IMG/VR virus record: IMGVR_UViG_3300009183_004297
Span: 6,719 to 70,718 of that record
DNA: 64,000 bases
Source of the DNA: a virus
Strand: one strand, 5' to 3'
Each line of letters starts with the position of its first letter. Within the stretch, counting starts at the first letter, position 1. A model generated the notes under the pieces. It was not told where the DNA came from, did not search any database, and saw only the letters and a program-made list of their open reading frames with translations. The translations under genes were made by a program, and so were the position numbers. Shown one piece after another: positions 56,673 to 62,788 of the stretch.

Positions 56673-56881
56673 TTTAGTGCAAATAGTGTGGCATCTTCTT
56701 CTTCACCAAACATCAAGCCTGACGCATCCTTCTCGCCCACCTGCGTGGGGTTACTGACCAGATGCACTTGGTATACTCCGTACTCAGCTTTGAGCCAGTC
56801 CCAGAAGTCCACATCGATTTTGTTGTCACGATGGTGTGTTTGCAAATTGTCGTAAAATGGTTCAATAGGAAGTATCTTCAT
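56663..56881 (-). CDS. Small paralogue of the F-x-L-[KR]-W-tail family
   Basis: Ends LMFGEEEDATLFALKWS. Confidence 0.65.
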   Translation of the reverse strand: MKILPIEPFYDNLQTHHRDNKIDVDFWDWLKAEYGVYQVHLVSNPTQVGEKDASGLMFGEEEDATLFALKWS

Positions 56882-57087
56882 AGTTCTTTCATGGTCAGCA
56901 TGGTGGCCCAGGCTTCTGCTTCGCCGTTGAACATGAACTCAATTTCATGCTTGCTTTGATCCAGTCGCCAGGTGTAGTCTCGGCCCATTTGTAAGCCTTG
57001 TTCTTTCAACCAACGAGAAATCATCACACCACGGTGCGATTCTTGTTCTGAACTTCCTTCACGGAATGGCAAAGTTACAATCTTCAT
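56878..57087 (-). CDS. Small divergent paralogue of the same family
   Basis: Ends IEFMFNGEAEAWATMLTMKEL. Confidence 0.55.
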   Translation of the reverse strand: MKIVTLPFREGSSEQESHRGVMISRWLKEQGLQMGRDYTWRLDQSKHEIEFMFNGEAEAWATMLTMKEL

Positions 57088-57123
57088 GTGTACAGTTTAA
57101 CACAAAAGTGAATTGTTGGAATT

Positions 57124-57390
57124 CTAAACGGGCAAATTCTTTGCACTCAGTTTGATCCACATGAACTCTTTTAGGTCCACTTCGGGTTGATGGATGAATG
57201 GCCGAGCAGGATCATTTCGGATAAAACGAACATGACCATCTTCTTCTACCCAGACTCTGCTACTGTTGTCAAACAAGCCGGTGTGCATGGCTTCGCCGCG
57301 TCGAGAGTTTATGGTGTGCGTGTAGTACCGAGTTTCGATGGGTTCGCCAAACATGGTACCTGGCGACACAATTTCGTAATATATGTTCAT
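57124..57390 (-). CDS. Hypothetical protein
   Basis: Ends VDLKEFMWIKLSAK. Confidence 0.55.
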   Translation of the reverse strand: MNIYYEIVSPGTMFGEPIETRYYTHTINSRRGEAMHTGLFDNSSRVWVEEDGHVRFIRNDPARPFIHQPEVDLKEFMWIKLSAKNLPV

Positions 57391-57581
57391 AACCACCTCA
57401 GTGAAAAAATTACCACATCTTTGGGATCCGCAAAATGATAGTCAACTTTGGATGGAGGTAAGTCGCGACCTAACCGTAAATGTGCTGTGGCAGAAAGATA
57501 GCTGGGGCAGTGCTCCTTGGCCCATTCCGTTGCATTCCATTCGTACTCGTGTGGTAGTGTTACTGTGTATCTCATAGCCAT
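57387..57581 (-). CDS. Small paralogue of the F-x-L-[KR]-W-tail family
   Basis: Ends YHFADPKDVVIFSLRWL. Confidence 0.65.
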   Translation of the reverse strand: MAMRYTVTLPHEYEWNATEWAKEHCPSYLSATAHLRLGRDLPPSKVDYHFADPKDVVIFSLRWL

Positions 57582-57829
57582 TTCAATGAAAACAACATTG
57601 CATCCTTATCTTCTGCAAAATGAAATATGTACCTGTCGTGATCTTCTCTGCCGGCCCAAAACATTGCCCAGAAACCATCAGGGTGGTCTATAGCTTCCCA
57701 TCTTTTTCCAAACTGCGCCAAACACCAAGCGCCAGCGGCCCTGTGTTTCTCAGCATCGATTAGAACATAGTGTTCCAGTGTACGAAACGCCCTGCGGTAT
57801 CTACGTGTTTGTGCTGAGTTCATAACCAC
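57572..57829 (-). CDS. Small paralogue of the F-x-L-[KR]-W-tail family
   Basis: Ends FHFAEDKDAMLFSLKWL. Confidence 0.65.
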   Translation of the reverse strand: MVMNSAQTRRYRRAFRTLEHYVLIDAEKHRAAGAWCLAQFGKRWEAIDHPDGFWAMFWAGREDHDRYIFHFAEDKDAMLFSLKWL

Positions 57830-58065
57830 TTGAGAATAAAAACATTTGCGTCTCGTTCATCTTCAAAGTAAAACAAAAAGCCTGCTGTGGGATCATCTGG
57901 AGTTTCATATCCTCTCAGCTGATACCTGGCAAGTCCTGCGTAGTCATTTTCAATCCAGTCCAGCATTTGTTGAACATCGGGTTGATGCTCCAGCATGCGT
58001 CGCCAAGACACAAACACTCGGGTCCAGTGCTCAGGGAATGGTAACGACTCGTCCTTGATCATCAT
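57820..58065 (-). CDS. Small paralogue of the F-x-L-[KR]-W-tail family
   Basis: Ends FYFEDERDANVFILKWL. Confidence 0.65.
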   Translation of the reverse strand: MMIKDESLPFPEHWTRVFVSWRRMLEHQPDVQQMLDWIENDYAGLARYQLRGYETPDDPTAGFLFYFEDERDANVFILKWL

Positions 58066-58804
58066 CCAGTACCTTTCGCTTACGCAGTACCCTGCCGTCT
58101 GCGGTGTACATGTGTCCGTCTGGCACATCTTTGATTATTTCTGCGTTTGTGAATATTGTAACATCGTTGCCAATCACAATAGGCGACTTTTTATGCCAGA
58201 TGTTTATACGAGAGTACGCACCCATGTACACATTGTTTCCAACTGAACATTGATACAAATGCGTGTGACAAGACATGATAGTATTACGTCCTATAGTTAC
58301 ACCGTCACCAATACCAGCCTCTGCTTCGCCAACAAAATGATCACCAATTGTGATACCAGCACTTACCATTATAAATCCACGATTAAGAAATACTCCGCGG
58401 CCAATTTTAATATCTCCATATCGGCTGTACAACCCGTCTACCCTTGCACTAGGATGTATCAGGTTAATGATATTTGCACCACTTTGTTCTAGCATGTTAA
58501 TTTGTCTCAGTCGCACCTGCCCGGGGTCAAAGCTACCTGCAACATGCTGTCCTCCATCCCAGTAACTGGCCACAATGAAATCACAGGTGCGTAACCATTG
58601 CTGTGCTGTGGCATTGTCGGCGTCCAGCAACCAGTCCTCAGAACCAATTACAGGAATCTTGCCACTACCCACTGAGTCTTGATTGCCCCAAAATTGTTTG
58701 TCCAACACACCCACAATCTCACGTCCATCTGCTTCTGCGGCAATGGCCATGTCGTTGATCAGGTTGCGACTGCCAACAAAGATTAACGGGCGTTTTAGAT
58801 CCAT
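58031..58804 (-). CDS. NeuD/PglD-like hexapeptide-repeat acetyltransferase
   Basis: N-terminal Rossmann-like part, NLIHPSA, [IV]GxxV hexapeptide repeats, KDVP. Confidence 0.7.
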   Translation of the reverse strand: MDLKRPLIFVGSRNLINDMAIAAEADGREIVGVLDKQFWGNQDSVGSGKIPVIGSEDWLLDADNATAQQWLRTCDFIVASYWDGGQHVAGSFDPGQVRLRQINMLEQSGANIINLIHPSARVDGLYSRYGDIKIGRGVFLNRGFIMVSAGITIGDHFVGEAEAGIGDGVTIGRNTIMSCHTHLYQCSVGNNVYMGAYSRINIWHKKSPIVIGNDVTIFTNAEIIKDVPDGHMYTADGRVLRKRKVLDDDQGRVVTIP

Positions 58805-58974
58805 TTTAGTGCAAACAGTGTAGCGTCATCTTTGTTTTTGAACTTGAACTCATATCTGGTGTTGTGAAAAAGACTTTCTACACTCATGGTCCAATACTTG
58901 TAGCCGATATTTTTCACAGCCCAGGCGCCTGCTTCGGTTGCTCGAGTTGGATTAGTTAAGGTTATGGTTGTCAT
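58795..58974 (-). CDS. Small paralogue of the F-x-L-[KR]-W-tail family (59 aa, missed by the track)
   Basis: MTTITLTNPTRATEAGAWAVKNIG...YEFKFKNKDDATLFALKWI. Confidence 0.65.
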   Translation of the reverse strand: MTTITLTNPTRATEAGAWAVKNIGYKYWTMSVESLFHNTRYEFKFKNKDDATLFALKWI

Positions 58975-58979
58975 GGTTT

Positions 58980-59008
58980 ATTATAGCATATTATAATTAT
59001 AATGTCAA
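58980..59008 (-). promoter_or_regulatory. Consensus sigma70 promoter, leaderless geometry
   Basis: TTGACA-17nt-TATAAT (with TG); ATG 5 nt after the -10. Confidence 0.65.
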
Positions 59009-59202
59009 GCCCAGCGTAGCATGAACCATGTGGCATGGTCTGTGCGTTTGAAGATAAAAATGGTGTGATCCAAACGGGTGTCCACATCGCCCCAGTCTGT
59101 GCCCCATGCTTCCCAACACCAACGCTGGCATTCGGCTCGCCAGTCACGAGTCACACAACCACAATCAATGTACCATCTGTCATTTTGTCTTAATAGTTTC
59201 AT
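59005..59202 (-). CDS. Small paralogue of the F-x-L-[KR]-W-tail family
   Basis: Ends FIFKRTDHATWFMLRWA. Confidence 0.65.
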   Translation of the reverse strand: MKLLRQNDRWYIDCGCVTRDWRAECQRWCWEAWGTDWGDVDTRLDHTIFIFKRTDHATWFMLRWA

Positions 59203-59593
59203 CAACACACAAGGCCTCTAGCAATTTATAGTTATCATAGGCCTGTTTCAGGGCTTCGTATTTTTCCAGGCGCTTGGGGTCAGGCACCAGGATTGCCAGT
59301 CGTTCTTGTATTTTTTCCAGTATTTCGGATATGTTGGCGCCATTTACTGTGAGGTTTCCCCGGATATCTGCATCGCCCGAAACTTGAAGACTTGGACTTG
59401 ATCCTGCATTTAGGGTCATAACCGGACTTTGTGTAACACTCCAATTGTTGCTGCCAGCACCGTTCCAGGGCATGGTATAAGTGCCACCTGCACCCACTGC
59501 GCCGGTTAGGCGATAGCTACCACCACTTCCTGCAATAGTTACATTTCCATATGCTGACCCTGATGGGTTTAGTGTGAGAGTTGAATTTGGCAT
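59180..59593 (-). CDS. Hypothetical phage protein
   Basis: Gly/Ser-rich start; IQERLAIL.PD...EKY.ALK.AY..YK. Confidence 0.65.
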   Translation of the reverse strand: MPNSTLTLNPSGSAYGNVTIAGSGGSYRLTGAVGAGGTYTMPWNGAGSNNWSVTQSPVMTLNAGSSPSLQVSGDADIRGNLTVNGANISEILEKIQERLAILVPDPKRLEKYEALKQAYDNYKLLEALCVDETIKTK

Positions 59594-59649: not shown

Positions 59650-60078
59650 ATGCTAAAATCAGTACTGACATATACCAAAACTGGAAACACCACTTGGGAC
59701 TATTTCTTAGACCCTAGCACTTTGCCTGCTGATAATCCTATGTTTGAAACATGGAAACAAGTTTGGCTAATGATGTATGGCACTGAAACTAAAACACTTT
59801 TTCCCGGAGTAACTTGGGAGTTTGAAGTGATATCAGCACAAGAATTAAAATGCCATCAAACAATAATAGATGTTGAGACTCTTGATGCTTGGATAAGTTA
59901 CATTACATCTTGTGATCTTAGTCCTGCAACGGATATTCATACGGTATTCGAAATCATGTATCCAGGAGAGTCACTGTCACAAACATTGGAGATCATCCAA
60001 GCACCTGTTAATATACAGGATTCTACTGCATACCAATGGGTAAACGAAGATCCTAACGTTGCTGTAATACAAAACTAA
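59650..60078 (+). CDS. Hypothetical acidic protein
   Basis: 142 aa; TAAATA and AAGGA upstream; terminator downstream. Confidence 0.65.
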   Translation: MLKSVLTYTKTGNTTWDYFLDPSTLPADNPMFETWKQVWLMMYGTETKTLFPGVTWEFEVISAQELKCHQTIIDVETLDAWISYITSCDLSPATDIHTVFEIMYPGESLSQTLEIIQAPVNIQDSTAYQWVNEDPNVAVIQN

Positions 60079-60101
60079 AAACCGCCCGAAGGCGGTTTTT
60101 T
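60077..60101. terminator. Bidirectional rho-independent terminator
   Basis: AAAAACCGCC-cgaa-GGCGGTTTTTT between convergent genes. Confidence 0.85.
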
Positions 60102-60118
60102 ATTGAACTTGTAAATTA

Positions 60119-60685
60119 TTAAAATCTACGTGAGTATGCCAGCCACACAGTATTGGTGTCCATGTCACCTCGGATCCAGTCCTGGCGAATAGCAATCGAG
60201 TCCTTGGCTGTGACATCATAACCCAGTTGTACTCGTGTCATACGAATATCCAGCGCACTTGTATTGATACCAGTGGCTACGGTGTAGTCTGGTTTGACCC
60301 AAAAGTTCGTACCAGGCACACGAGCCACTGCACCAACTTCCACGCCACCATATGTCATGGTAGCTACCTTGCTGACTTCAATTGCGCCCATGCCCAATCG
60401 TACATAAGGCGTAACAGGTGAACTGTTTAGGAATCGATATCCTGCACCAACTTCATACTGATTGGTGATGCTGAGTGTTGAACTGTTGCGACTAGGTGAA
60501 ACCATGACATCAACAAATACATCTTTCTTGTCAGTAACATCAAACACACCTTTAACAATGTAAGTGGTCGAGTCAACGTCTGTGGTGTTATTTTTGTTGC
60601 TGTTTGGTGCAACCCCAATAATAACAGAATCAGCCTGGGCAATTCCTGCCACAAGAGCAAAGCATAGTGCTAGTAGTTTTTTCAT
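60119..60685 (-). CDS. Outer-membrane beta-barrel protein with signal peptide
   Basis: True start MKKLLALCFALVAGIAQA after AGGAGA; amphipathic strands (VGAGYRF, QLGYDV); C-terminal aromatic (AYSRRF). Confidence 0.75.
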   Translation of the reverse strand: MKKLLALCFALVAGIAQADSVIIGVAPNSNKNNTTDVDSTTYIVKGVFDVTDKKDVFVDVMVSPSRNSSTLSITNQYEVGAGYRFLNSSPVTPYVRLGMGAIEVSKVATMTYGGVEVGAVARVPGTNFWVKPDYTVATGINTSALDIRMTRVQLGYDVTAKDSIAIRQDWIRGDMDTNTVWLAYSRRF

Positions 60686-60716
60686 TTTATATCTCCTAAA
60701 GTTAATGAAATATTTA

Positions 60717-60934
60717 GGACTGGGTAGAGCAAGTTGCGGGCTGGACAATTGACAATGGTCAATATGCAACAGATAATCCACAGAGGACCTAGTATGACTG
60801 GTAGCAATGCACAAATCGCAATATGTTAGCCAGTAGCATTAGGTCACGAACCTTGTTCAGAGGTTGGAGTTAAGTTCCAGTATCATTGGTTAGAATGAAC
60901 TAGATGGTGCCTGCTCTCATCTCTCTACTCGTCC
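60717..60934 (-). ncRNA. Candidate ~220-nt multi-stem structured RNA
   Basis: 5' GGAC-GAGTAGAG pairs with 3' CTCTACCC-A-GTCC; inner GCAGGC/GCCCGC; hairpins CTAGTTCATT/AATGATACTGG, AACCT/AGGTT, GACCTA..ACTGG/CCAGT..TAGGTC and TGGAT/GTCCA. Confidence 0.7.
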
Positions 60935-60936
60935 AC

Positions 60937-60958
60937 GGACCTGGCCGAAGCCAGACCC
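60937..60958 (-). other. cUUCGg tetraloop hairpin between the stop codon and the RNA
   Basis: GGGTCTGGC-TTCG-GCCAGGTCC with no U tract. Confidence 0.7.
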
Positions 60959-61531
60959 TTAAACCAAATTTTCTCGTTGCAGAATTTCAATTACTTCTGC
61001 GCTCAGTTCAATTTCTGTACGCACGTTCAATTCCAAAATTTCGTCATTGATACGTTGCTTTTGTTTTTTCATGTCACGCAAGACCACTTTGATTTGGTCC
61101 AAGGCTTCACGTGGCAACACGCCAGTTGTGACATCATCGTGGTGACCGTAAAGGCTCGCACGACTGTCCGCTGGACGAGTTTTGATCTTTTCCAGCTTGC
61201 CCTTGATCACTTCAATGTCATCGCGATTTTCAGCTGATGCAAACACGCCCAGTTGCTCAATGCGCTTGTCGGTATAGGCCGCACGTGCCAAGCGATCTGC
61301 CACACCACTTTGTGCGTTGGCAATGTTTACCTGCGCACGAATGCTGTACAATGCAACCAACAGGTCATTGCGACGACTGTCTGCAATCATCACTTCCTCG
61401 GCCTTTTGATTCAACACTGTTTCTGGTGTTTGGAATTCGTTGATTTTCACTTCCAAGTTCACTGTGATACCGCGCATGGTTTCTTGGATGGAGTTTTGTA
61501 GAGCTGATGATTTACGTAGATTGATTTTCAT
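60959..61531 (-). CDS. All-helical coiled-coil protein, DIP1984/DUF6847-like by recall
   Basis: MKINLRKSSALQ..., LYSIRAQVNIAN, KQKQRINDEILELNVRTEIEL; family match unverified. Confidence 0.7.
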   Translation of the reverse strand: MKINLRKSSALQNSIQETMRGITVNLEVKINEFQTPETVLNQKAEEVMIADSRRNDLLVALYSIRAQVNIANAQSGVADRLARAAYTDKRIEQLGVFASAENRDDIEVIKGKLEKIKTRPADSRASLYGHHDDVTTGVLPREALDQIKVVLRDMKKQKQRINDEILELNVRTEIELSAEVIEILQRENLV

Positions 61532-61552
61532 TTGTATTTCCTTGACTATAGT

Positions 61553-61581
61553 ATTTTATACGATTGACCTCGCAAGGTCAA
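61553..61581 (-). promoter_or_regulatory. Sigma70-like promoter with a palindrome over the -35
   Basis: TTGACC-17nt-TAAAAT; inverted repeat TTGACCT-N4-AGGTCAA at 61564-61581. Confidence 0.55.
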
Positions 61582-61591
61582 CCTTTCTGGC

Positions 61592-62413
61592 TCAAATTTC
61601 AAACCCAACTGTGGGATCAAAAATGTTTGCTTGTGTTTCGTATCCCCTGTAGCCACGTGGGTTACAGATCACACGGCACTGCCCAATCATGTAGTCACTT
61701 GGGTCATGCATGTGCCCGTGTGTCCAAAACAGCACGTTTTCGTGATCCAAGATAAACTCACTTAGGTCACTGGCATATCCACCGTTCATGTCCACATCGT
61801 GCCGGTAGTGCTCATGCACACTTTGATAGCTGGGCGCATGATGCGTACACACCACAATCTTCCGGTCGCGATTCAATTCCAATATGGTCTTGAAGTACTC
61901 CTTGGTACGCATGTGAGTTTCCATGGTATCTTGCGGAGTCAGCTTGCGATAGATAGGTCCTGCCTTGTTGGTGATAGCACGGTAGTCATTCATACCATGC
62001 TTGAGCACCTGCACACACATGGGATTACCCTTGTTGCAGTCAGTCCACAGTGTAGCACCCAAGAATATCACACCGTCAATTTCAACGTGTTCGTTTTCCA
62101 ACACTGTCACATTGTCCGGCACAGTGGCCTTGAGCTCATGCACAGTCTTGTCGTAGCGTCCGTGATAGTGTTCGTGATTGCCCATAACATAGATAACTTC
62201 GCGGTACTTGGCACATTCTTCATGGAAGAAACGCTGAGCACGATCCATACGTTTGAGATCGCCTACATCAGTCATGATGTTCATTGGGTCATACTTGTAC
62301 TTGGTCAGGGTGCGGCTTTCGCACACATCACCTGACAAAATCAGCACGTCTCCGCCTGGCAACTCTAGGTCGCCAAACTCAAGATGCAGGTCTGATATAA
62401 CATTAATTTTCAT
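61592..62413 (-). CDS. Calcineurin-like metallophosphoesterase
   Basis: SDLH, SGD, GNHE, THHAP, HGHMH motifs. Confidence 0.9.
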   Translation of the reverse strand: MKINVISDLHLEFGDLELPGGDVLILSGDVCESRTLTKYKYDPMNIMTDVGDLKRMDRAQRFFHEECAKYREVIYVMGNHEHYHGRYDKTVHELKATVPDNVTVLENEHVEIDGVIFLGATLWTDCNKGNPMCVQVLKHGMNDYRAITNKAGPIYRKLTPQDTMETHMRTKEYFKTILELNRDRKIVVCTHHAPSYQSVHEHYRHDVDMNGGYASDLSEFILDHENVLFWTHGHMHDPSDYMIGQCRVICNPRGYRGYETQANIFDPTVGFEI

Positions 62414-62419
62414 AACGCA

Positions 62420-62448
62420 ATTATAGCATGAGACCATGGTCTGGTCAA
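62420..62448 (-). promoter_or_regulatory. Sigma70 promoter, leaderless geometry, palindromic spacer
   Basis: TTGACC-17nt-TATAAT; spacer contains AGACCATGGTCT; ATG at 62413. Confidence 0.65.
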
Positions 62449-62449
62449 G

Positions 62450-62474
62450 AAAAAAGGTGCCCTAAAGCACCTTT
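62450..62474 (-). terminator. Rho-independent terminator
   Basis: AAAGGTGC-loop-GCACCTTTTTT on the minus strand. Confidence 0.7.
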
Positions 62475-62491
62475 GATTAGTCCAAAATCAA

Positions 62492-62788
62492 TTAGACTGT
62501 GATGCCCAAAGACTGAGCGCGGTATGCGAGCGCAACCATTTTGCGGCTGGCTTCGCCATGACGGTATTCAGTTACCTGAACGCCATTGCCTGCTTTACGA
62601 GCCTTGGCATAAACTGCATAACCACGGTTACGAATAACGCTGATGGTAGCAGTTGGATTAGCGATGCTAAAACGCTTTTGGATTTGTGCTTCGCTCAGAA
62701 CCTCTCCATCCAAGACCAAGGCCTTGAATAGTTTACCTTGCTTGGTAGTAAGGTCAAAATTGCGGATTGCTTTAGTTTGATGTTTCAT
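62492..62788 (-). CDS. Winged helix-turn-helix-like DNA-binding protein
   Basis: LSEAQIQKRFSIANPTATISVIRNRGYAVY. Confidence 0.65.
   Translation of the reverse strand: MKHQTKAIRNFDLTTKQGKLFKALVLDGEVLSEAQIQKRFSIANPTATISVIRNRGYAVYAKARKAGNGVQVTEYRHGEASRKMVALAYRAQSLGITV

Follow-up and report, generated by a model that had tools for sequence, protein, structure and literature searches.

The periodic UUG tracts on the minus strand of this viral sequence are, as judged by comparison with related loci, parts of a conserved and uncatalogued structured RNA of about 240 nt that belongs to freshwater jumbo phages. The longer tract carries a register of six sites spaced 7 nt apart. The best explanation overall, which we regard as slightly better than evenly balanced, is that this six-site array of a new phage RNA binds an oligomeric protein, with the product of the neighboring gene as the candidate partner.

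Genomic setting and anatomy of the RNA

The window (the whole stretch of 64,000 nt that was analysed) corresponds to bases 6719-70718 of a 70.7-kb viral metagenome record. Completeness of the record is estimated at only 20%, and the window is thus a piece of a jumbo-phage genome. Both the RNA and the UUG tracts lie in a spacer of 273 nt (60686-60958) that separates two genes of the minus strand. The features are given below in the order in which the minus strand is read.

61553-61581, minus strand: promoter-like TTGACC-17-TAAAAT upstream of the gene for the 190-aa protein (consensus scan only)
60959-61531, minus strand: gene for a 190-aa helical protein of unknown family, upstream of the RNA; conserved neighbor and candidate partner
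60714-60957, minus strand: structured non-coding RNA of about 240 nt, beginning right after the stop codon at 60959 and ending near 60717
60941-60954, minus strand: 5' hairpin CUGGC-UUCG-GCCAG, directly after the stop of the upstream gene (read in the sequence)
60934-60931, minus strand: 5' strand of P0, GGAC (by eye)
60930-60923, minus strand: 5' strand of P1 (helix 1), GAGUAGAG; the 5' strands of P0 and P1 are together listed as 60922-60934
60909-60917, minus strand: 5' strand of P2 (helix 2), AG-A-GCAGGC, preceded by a conserved GAGAU bulge region
60849-60903, minus strand: variable hairpins, including AACCU-CUGAACA-AGGUU at 60865-60849 (minimum-free-energy fold and alignment)
60840-60845, minus strand: 5' strand of P3 (helix 3), GACCUA, pairing with UAGGUC at 60791-60786
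60830-60834, minus strand: 5' strand of P4 (helix 4), ACUGG, pairing with CCAGU at 60801-60797
60805-60821, minus strand: tract 1, UUG at 60821, 60814 and 60807, in the loop closed by P4
60743-60783, minus strand: tract 2, six heptads (CUG 60783, UUA 60776, UUG 60769, 60762, 60755 and 60748) followed by UCC; unpaired in the consensus
60732-60741, minus strand: 3' strand of P2, GCCCGC-AA-CU (consensus and covariation)
60729-60722, minus strand: 3' strand of P1, CUCUACCC (consensus and covariation)
60720-60717, minus strand: 3' strand of P0, GUCC, partner of GGAC
60119-60685, minus strand: gene for a 188-aa protein that has a signal peptide and a region resembling outer-membrane beta-barrels, downstream of the RNA
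60077-60100, minus strand: terminator-like hairpin and T-run after the gene for the 188-aa protein (consensus scan only)

Between the promoter-like and the terminator-like site the consensus scan found no further site of either kind on the minus strand, and no terminator-like site in 60686-60958. ARAGORN found no tRNA or tmRNA genes in the window. The 188-aa protein resembles PF13505 below the family cut-off (E 2.4e-4, 21.8 bits against 28.7 bits), and clustering of ORF families over the 151 loci that carry the RNA (see below) shows no conserved linkage between its gene and the RNA.

Conservation of the RNA

An alignment of 23 relatives of the 190-aa protein (A1) was used to fetch 80 viral and 80 metagenomic loci, in which the protein is at most 56% identical to that of the window. 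When nhmmer was seeded with the window spacer and run for three iterations on these 160 loci – all fetched by way of the neighboring protein – an RNA match of 200-260 nt was found in 151, always on the strand of the protein gene. Two of the nine loci lacking an nhmmer match (L059 and L089) match the covariance model described below, four (L050, L155, L157 and L158) are cut at the 5' end of the protein gene, and three (L053, L109 and L159) gave no RNA match by nhmmer.

Alignment of 78 distinct copies with MAFFT (A2) yielded an RNAalifold consensus of 28 pairs, 24 of which are maintained through changes on both sides. Across the four helices 94.6% of cells in A2 are paired, compared to 33.7-47.5% when the 3' partners are slid by one to three columns; the covariation score is 0.803, compared to a maximum of 0.148 with slid partners, and none of 500 shuffles reaches 0.803. 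Two-sided changes are found at all eight pairs of P1 (92.7% of cells paired), at six of the eight pairs of P2 (99.2%), at five of the six pairs of P3, and at all five pairs of P4 (96.1%). In the window copy a single A-C mismatch interrupts the closing helices P0 and P1. Where the window has the 5' hairpin, relatives have one of differing sequence, an observation made by eye and not counted. Within the region of variable hairpins a CUUGAAA loop recurs: it is present in 50 of 92 copies, at 0.60 per copy against 0.02 in shuffles.

A covariance model built from A2 (R1) matches the window at 60947-60714 with 116.5 bits (E 6e-23), the sole copy in the window. It gave 95 matches in 100 sources, and found one copy in each of four near-complete genomes of 320-374 kb. 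The folding energy of the window RNA is unremarkable (z -0.49): the support for the RNA is therefore evolutionary, rather than thermodynamic.

A search of the window against Rfam 15 gave no match at the gathering threshold, the best sub-threshold match being freshwater-2 (15.8 bits against 49.9). The same search on ten related loci returned 26 matches: 23 tRNAs over threshold and three sub-threshold matches to Plastid-ycf2. Searches of deposited phages with blastn, using 60000-62500 and the RNA of a relative, found no match, and a full-text literature search found no earlier description of the RNA, which is no proof that none exists. Together these data describe a genuine, conserved phage RNA that is apparently undescribed.

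Two UUG tracts in the window copy

The original prediction placed two tracts of TTG with a period of 7 nt on the minus strand, with three and four repeats, and both are present exactly as described. Tract 1 reads TTGCGAT-TTGTGCA-TTGCTAC (TTG at 60821-60819, 60814-60812 and 60807-60805). Tract 2 includes TTGCATA-TTGACCA-TTGTCAA-TTGTCCA, with TTG at 60769, 60762, 60755 and 60748 (the run of four spans 60769-60746); it begins two heptads before the start originally given, at CUG 60783, its second site being a degenerate UUA (60776) and its layout contiguous. Both tracts had been thought to be displayed in loops. For tract 1 this is borne out, the ACTGG/CCAGT stem (60834-60830 with 60801-60797) being helix 4 of the consensus. 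Tract 2 occupies the stretch from the 3' strand of P3 to that of P2, and the TGGAT/GTCCA stem proposed for it is missing from the consensus structure.

On both strands of the 64-kb window there are only three TTG runs of at least three repeats at period 7, and two of these are the tracts. When all 64 triplets and seven non-codon periods are considered, the window contains seven runs of at least four, so a single run of four is not rare. The combination of a run of four and a run of three, of the same triplet and period and within 100 nt, occurred in 4 of 300 windows simulated under a second-order Markov model, a figure corrected for look-elsewhere over the 64 triplets and seven non-codon periods. 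Since many windows are being scanned, these statistics are modest alone – suggestive, not decisive – and the question thus needed comparison with relatives: it is conservation that settles the reality of the tracts.

A register of six heptads

To count sites, positions were anchored on alignment columns and scored on the raw sequences of 93 distinct homologues, which are relatives and not independent trials. Exactly six in-phase NUG triplets at 7-nt spacing are found in tract 2 of 87 of the 93. The layout is 3+3 in 43 of these, 4+2 in 36, contiguous in seven and 2+4 in one; in the split forms a hairpin of variable length, which is not a multiple of 7, is inserted in one spacer. The distance from anchor to anchor is 35-74 nt and likewise not a multiple of 7. 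The window copy, with CUG, UUA and four UUG, is itself one of the six exceptions. At periods of 5, 6, 8 and 9 nt nothing beyond the two anchor sites turns up in 78-92 of the 93, and none of 1860 shuffles of the inter-anchor sequence reaches six sites.

Pooled triplet counts are 602 UUG, 127 CUG, 48 AUG and 17 GUG. When the heptads are pooled, the consensus is Y-U-G-Y-N-N-N, with about 0.9 bit of information at each of positions 1 and 4 and 0.08-0.24 bit at the spacer positions, of which there are three. The spacing of the triplets had been predicted to be conserved while the four nucleotides between them vary, and in the homologues spacing and triplets are indeed kept while the spacers vary; homologous RNAs devoid of periodic triplets, which would have spoken against the idea, are not what the alignment contains. 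The 7-nt pitch therefore stands. The repeating unit has to be redrawn, from UUG-N4 to YUGY-N3. Because the point of insertion varies and the spacers turn over, simple inheritance of the register is argued against. In tract 1, the run is of two triplets in 67 of the 93 relatives, three in 21, four in two and one in three. RNAalifold assigns no partner columns to the track of tract 2.

Linkage to a 190-aa protein

All-against-all clustering of co-oriented ORFs shows that the 190-aa protein is the only ORF family present in 151 of 151 RNA loci: the next most common is present in 46. The RNA is situated upstream of the gene in 124 loci, where the gap to the start codon is most commonly 36-40 nt (mode 38 nt); in the remaining 27, among them the window, it is downstream. 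The linkage thus outlasts rearrangement. A 79-aa ORF resembling RNA polymerase omega/Rpb6 (PF01192, E 4e-9) stands between the RNA and the gene in 42 loci. In this phage the omega/Rpb6-like gene is some 66 kb away, outside the window. A pattern scan starting from the RNA returned mostly chance matches: of 119 matches 80 loci were searched and ten contained the RNA, nine of them previously known. L185, a locus reached solely from the RNA side, encodes the protein as well.

Same-strand tRNA genes occur in 118 of the 151 RNA loci. Among 94 distinct copies of the RNA, the 3' end of a tRNA is found 15-24 nt upstream in 24 and a sigma-70-like promoter upstream in another 24; neither is present in 42, and four are too near the end of a contig.

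Contigs identical (100%) to 60720-60951, 60696-60950 and 60720-61052 are present in three metatranscriptome libraries from three studies. The second extends beyond the putative 3' end of the RNA and the third bridges into the protein gene. The end at 60720 is common to runs X4 and X7, and in X7 carries a 12-nt loose end that we take to be like a sequencing adapter. These data are assembled contigs in which DNA carry-over is possible, and their depths and the uncovered parts of the 1.5-kb stretch cannot rank expression: they attest only to presence in RNA libraries, and the fragment end at 60720 is at most a weak hint of an RNA end.

A word-indexed search gives the protein 406 relatives with a length of about 190 aa, and an exhaustive profile search gives 1475 clusters (at 50% identity). 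Single-protein pattern scans of viral contigs gave nothing; alignment-based scans succeeded. No Pfam family is above cut-off (best DUF4600, 17.8 bits against a 27-bit cut-off), NCBIfam has no match, and a profile search of the PDB found no relative (best E 0.075); across these three resources there is thus no match to a known RNA-binding family. In the ESM Atlas the protein has a confident helical model whose look-alikes are only unnamed viral clusters, and a sub-threshold structural likeness to DUF6847/DIP1984 proteins (TM 0.45-0.68), on which a literature search found nothing useful. Fused, longer forms were sought and none found, which is weak evidence. The protein is near-neutral, with a pI of about 6 (5.4-6.8 in 23 members). 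With its charge, and with neither a family nor a PDB relative, it does not have the look of an RNA binder; by synteny alone, it is the leading candidate for the partner of the RNA.

A candidate homologue in Brevundimonas phages

Among deposited phages, only five Brevundimonas jumbo phages of about 350 kb encode the protein (28% identity). In the four that were examined the protein gene is followed by an unannotated gap of 311-314 nt, 95% identical among them. Neither R1 nor nhmmer detected the RNA in the 313-nt gap, which in vB_BpoS-Domovoi, a phage of Brevundimonas pondensis, comes after DOMOVOI_02640. The gap folds (z -4.0) into a structure that has a long closing helix and, on its 3' side, an unpaired tract, and reading by eye finds AUG-UUG-GUG-UUG-GUG at 7-nt spacing together with motifs like those of the 5' part of the family. 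By synteny, architecture and this reading, the gap is a candidate for a distant homologue.

Comparison with known systems

To our knowledge, only TRAP and HutP have been well studied as oligomers that read regularly spaced RNA triplets. TRAP targets consist of some 9-11 (G/U)AG triplets with spacers of 2-3 nt. Like the phage RNA these are regularly spaced triplets on single-stranded RNA, which in the case of TRAP wraps an oligomeric ring, and a ring-perimeter mode of this kind would tolerate a hairpin in any spacer, as the phage RNA shows. The phage RNA differs in having six YUGY sites, 3-nt spacers and a 7-nt period; moreover TRAP acts by attenuation, for which the phage RNA has no counterpart.

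TRAP, the precedent originally put forward, is not the nearest: HutP is closer, with its 7-nt period, blocks of three and hexamer (PMC2425495). According to that paper, the HutP hexamer binds two sites, each comprising three NAG motifs at 7-nt spacing, with a linker of 12-17 nt between them; in-line cleavages of hut RNA fall 7 nt apart (U498, U505 and U512), the spacers are sequence-independent, and the RNA forms a triangle on each face of the hexamer. The same paper states that TRAP, too, reads repeating triplets. The hut terminator RNA of Bacillus subtilis shares with the phage RNA the 7-nt triplet period, the sequence-independent spacers, six sites that are commonly in two blocks of three with a linker, a protein gene – in hut that of the regulator – adjoining the RNA and, on the reading favored here for the phage RNA, recognition by a multi-site oligomer. 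The 3+3 layout with its inserted hairpin (43 of 93) mirrors HutP, whereas the 4+2 (36 of 93) and contiguous (7 of 93) layouts do not fit a strict two-face geometry and are better suited to a single perimeter, as in TRAP. The differences from hut are several. The phage core is YUGY, whereas in the NAG triplet of HutP it is the A and the G that are read by the protein; hut sites flank an intrinsic terminator stem, whereas the phage track is flanked by P3 and P2 and has no U-run; and the phage track, unlike hut, is inside a larger closed RNA with four covarying helices, in phages. The HutP gene (PF09021) was found in none of five records, four of them at least 92% complete, with B. subtilis as a positive control. 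Membership in the HutP system is ruled out by the triplet, by the failure to find the HutP gene in the five genomes, and by the lack of a terminator.

Two further classes of RNA invite comparison. Species 1 and 2 RNAs of phage T4 are small stable RNAs within the phage tRNA gene cluster. As with these, the present RNA is a non-tRNA RNA gene, of the stable kind if our reading holds, in a same-strand phage tRNA array (tRNAs in 118 of 151 loci); it differs in its dedicated protein neighbor and heptad array, and in having no Rfam match. Type III toxin-antitoxin RNAs are built of repeats of about 34-45 nt in tandem, and they precede the gene for a toxin that is an endoribonuclease. This class was rejected: the phage unit is of 7 nt inside a non-repetitive structured RNA, and the neighboring protein has no family match.

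What reads the register?

Given that the register is conserved and that the protein is linked to the RNA in all 151 loci, an oligomer-binding array with the neighbor as partner, as originally proposed, is a reasonable reading. Its parts differ in strength. The RNA family, its helices and the preservation of the six-site register are established by the comparison of relatives. That some protein reads the six-site register we consider rather probable; that this protein is the 190-aa neighbor, to which synteny points, is possible, if short of probable.

Under the array model, the RNA would be closed by its paired 5' and 3' ends (P1 and P2), with the loop of an internal P3/P4 arm displaying two or three UUG. 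The single-stranded track of six YUGY-N3 heptads, just before the 3' strand of P2, would act as a register of equivalent sites, bound by a protein that offers six RNA pockets, be it as a hexamer or as two trimers, much as NAG-N4 does on the HutP hexamer or (G/U)AG on the TRAP ring; the loop tract would add two or three further sites. The 190-aa helical protein and the RNA would together form a ribonucleoprotein, the RNA being made as part of an operon or tRNA-array transcript and probably excised from it as a stable species. In its fullest and most tentative form the model would describe a new jumbo-phage ribonucleoprotein, in which the six-heptad YUGY track and loop tract are arranged around a hexamer of a new helical family: a third independent invention of recognition in the style of TRAP and HutP, and a trans-acting particle, issued from tRNA arrays, that acts on host translation, RNA processing or transcription and not by attenuation. 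We regard this fuller picture as doubtful, although worth stating.

A host protein might read the array instead, be it a six-domain or hexameric binder of single-stranded RNA or an RNA-cutting defence enzyme, the RNA then being a decoy or recruiter. The conserved register implies only something with a fixed spacing of sites, the neighboring protein has no RNA-binding signature, and 118 of 151 loci place the RNA amid phage tRNA genes, arrays of which can have a role in counter-defence. A host reader nevertheless leaves unexplained why the 190-aa gene stays beside the RNA in each of the 151 loci even where their order changes, and no host factor preferring YUGY-N3 was identified. We judge this reading unlikely.

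It is more unlikely that the RNA is a cis-acting 5' leader or operator, such that the protein binds its own mRNA and controls translation or stability, with no free stable RNA. The downstream position of the RNA in 27 of 151 loci, this window included, is difficult to accommodate, as are the omega-like ORF that intervenes in 42 loci and, in 24 of 94 copies, a tRNA abutting the 5' end; 5' and 3' ends that pair with each other would, in addition, be typical of excised stable RNAs. These considerations are set against the upstream position in 124 loci (mostly 36-40 nt from the start codon), the lack of a terminator-like site between the RNA and the next gene in the window, and the one metatranscriptome contig that joins the RNA and the protein gene.

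The triplets could also make RNA-RNA contacts, either tertiary or by pairing with CAA/CAR of a second RNA (a tRNA, for example), with no protein reader. The motif is short and U/G-rich, the RNA sits in tRNA arrays, and the recurrent UUG-containing loop CUUGAAA (50 of 92 copies) hints at a shared recognition element. Yet the RNAalifold consensus leaves the track without partner columns, inspection of the alignment by eye showed no repeated complementary CAR array, and six equivalent sites at 7-nt pitch, tolerating a hairpin in either of two spacers, bespeak repeated identical pockets and not a fold, which makes this explanation improbable. Finally, an origin in chance, in slippage during replication or in a signal at the DNA level (such as operators, iterons or the -35 boxes of promoters) is so improbable as to be negligible: single runs of four are common (seven in the window), the cluster arises in 4 of 300 simulations and a plus-strand promoter-like TTGACA-17-GATAAT overlaps tract 2, but the register is conserved where the neighboring protein is at most 56% identical to that of the window, it is always on the gene strand and inside covarying RNA helices, the RNA contains no minus-strand promoter-like site, and the one on the plus strand was observed in this window alone.

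Implications

The RNA is well conserved, single-copy in phage genomes of 320-374 kb and absent from Rfam 15, and is a ready candidate for a new RNA family. It offers a first point of entry to the function of a large, uncharacterized family of viral proteins, and the prediction is unusually testable, specifying six sites, a 7-nt pitch and a YUGY core; the cultured Brevundimonas jumbo phages may offer an experimental system. Should this prove to be a third triplet-reading system, with a different triplet, pitch and protein, it would show how general the solution is.

The 5' end of the RNA and its loops

In many relatives (among the related loci, for example, L049, L104 and L110) the region of the RNA covered by its covariance model is preceded by a conserved GUUUUG, followed by a 5' hairpin that by eye appears to covary. 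tRNAs were found 15-24 nt upstream of the RNA in some copies, with tRNA-Cys accounting for 11 of the 24 at this distance. Given GUUUUG and a hairpin before the modelled region, together with a tRNA at this distance, the true 5' end of the RNA may precede the start of the model by approximately 25 nt.

A hairpin loop of sequence CUUGAAA is present in 50 of the 92 distinct copies in the alignment of RNA homologues, and the motif occurs at a frequency of 0.60 per copy vs. 0.02 in shuffles. The loops are found on variable hairpins and on a hairpin inserted into tract 2, the stretch of heptads in which NUG triplets recur every 7 nt; in the window copy, the hairpin at 60865-60849 carries CUGAACA in place of CUUGAAA. 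In the CUUGAAA loop, the UUG element may be displayed once more.

A consensus scan of the window returned a promoter-like match on the strand opposite tract 2, which arises because the complement of the heptads is CAATTG-rich:

60749-60777, plus strand, antisense to tract 2: TTGACA-17-GATAAT, matching at 11 of 12 positions

A gap in Brevundimonas phages

Four phages share an unannotated gap after the homologous gene:

L167:3598-3910 (Brevundimonas phage vB_BpoS-Domovoi), with counterparts in L168-L170: gap of 311-314 nt

The gap is 95% identical across the four phages, has a folding z of -4.0 and, read by eye, contains NUGC five times at 7-nt spacing; neither the covariance model nor nhmmer matched it to the RNA family.

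Genes in the neighborhood of the RNA

Several genes lie near the RNA in the window:

56878-59208, minus strand: six small ORFs in tandem (59-102 aa)
58031-58804, minus strand: hexapeptide-repeat transferase-like gene
60119-60685, minus strand: signal-peptide protein, outer-membrane beta-barrel-like (weak match to PF13505, 21.8 bits vs. a 28.7-bit cut-off)
61592-62437, minus strand: metallophosphoesterase gene

Five of the six tandem ORFs have in common a C-terminal F-x-L-[KR]-W-[LIA], while the sixth (56878-57087) ends differently, and none has a match in Pfam; they look like a paralogous family. The beta-barrel-like gene adjoins the RNA directly downstream and is not kept as its neighbor in other RNA loci. 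The match of the transferase-like protein is weak, falling below the Pfam cut-off; the metallophosphoesterase matches phrog_1649 (E 1e-57), and its relatives occur near the RNA in 15-22 loci.

In 42 loci a further ORF is located between the RNA and the gene for the helical protein, the candidate RNA partner:

L090:2735-2974 and 41 other loci: RNA polymerase omega/Rpb6-like ORF, 79 aa (PF01192, E 4e-9)

The corresponding ORF of the window phage lies outside the window, some 66 kb distant (G000:C1:653-799). Of 23 proteins from the helical family, 3 also match yteA/DksA-like NCBIfam models weakly (E 0.0064). Taken together, the omega/Rpb6-like ORF and the yteA/DksA-like matches offer a faint lead towards RNA polymerase.
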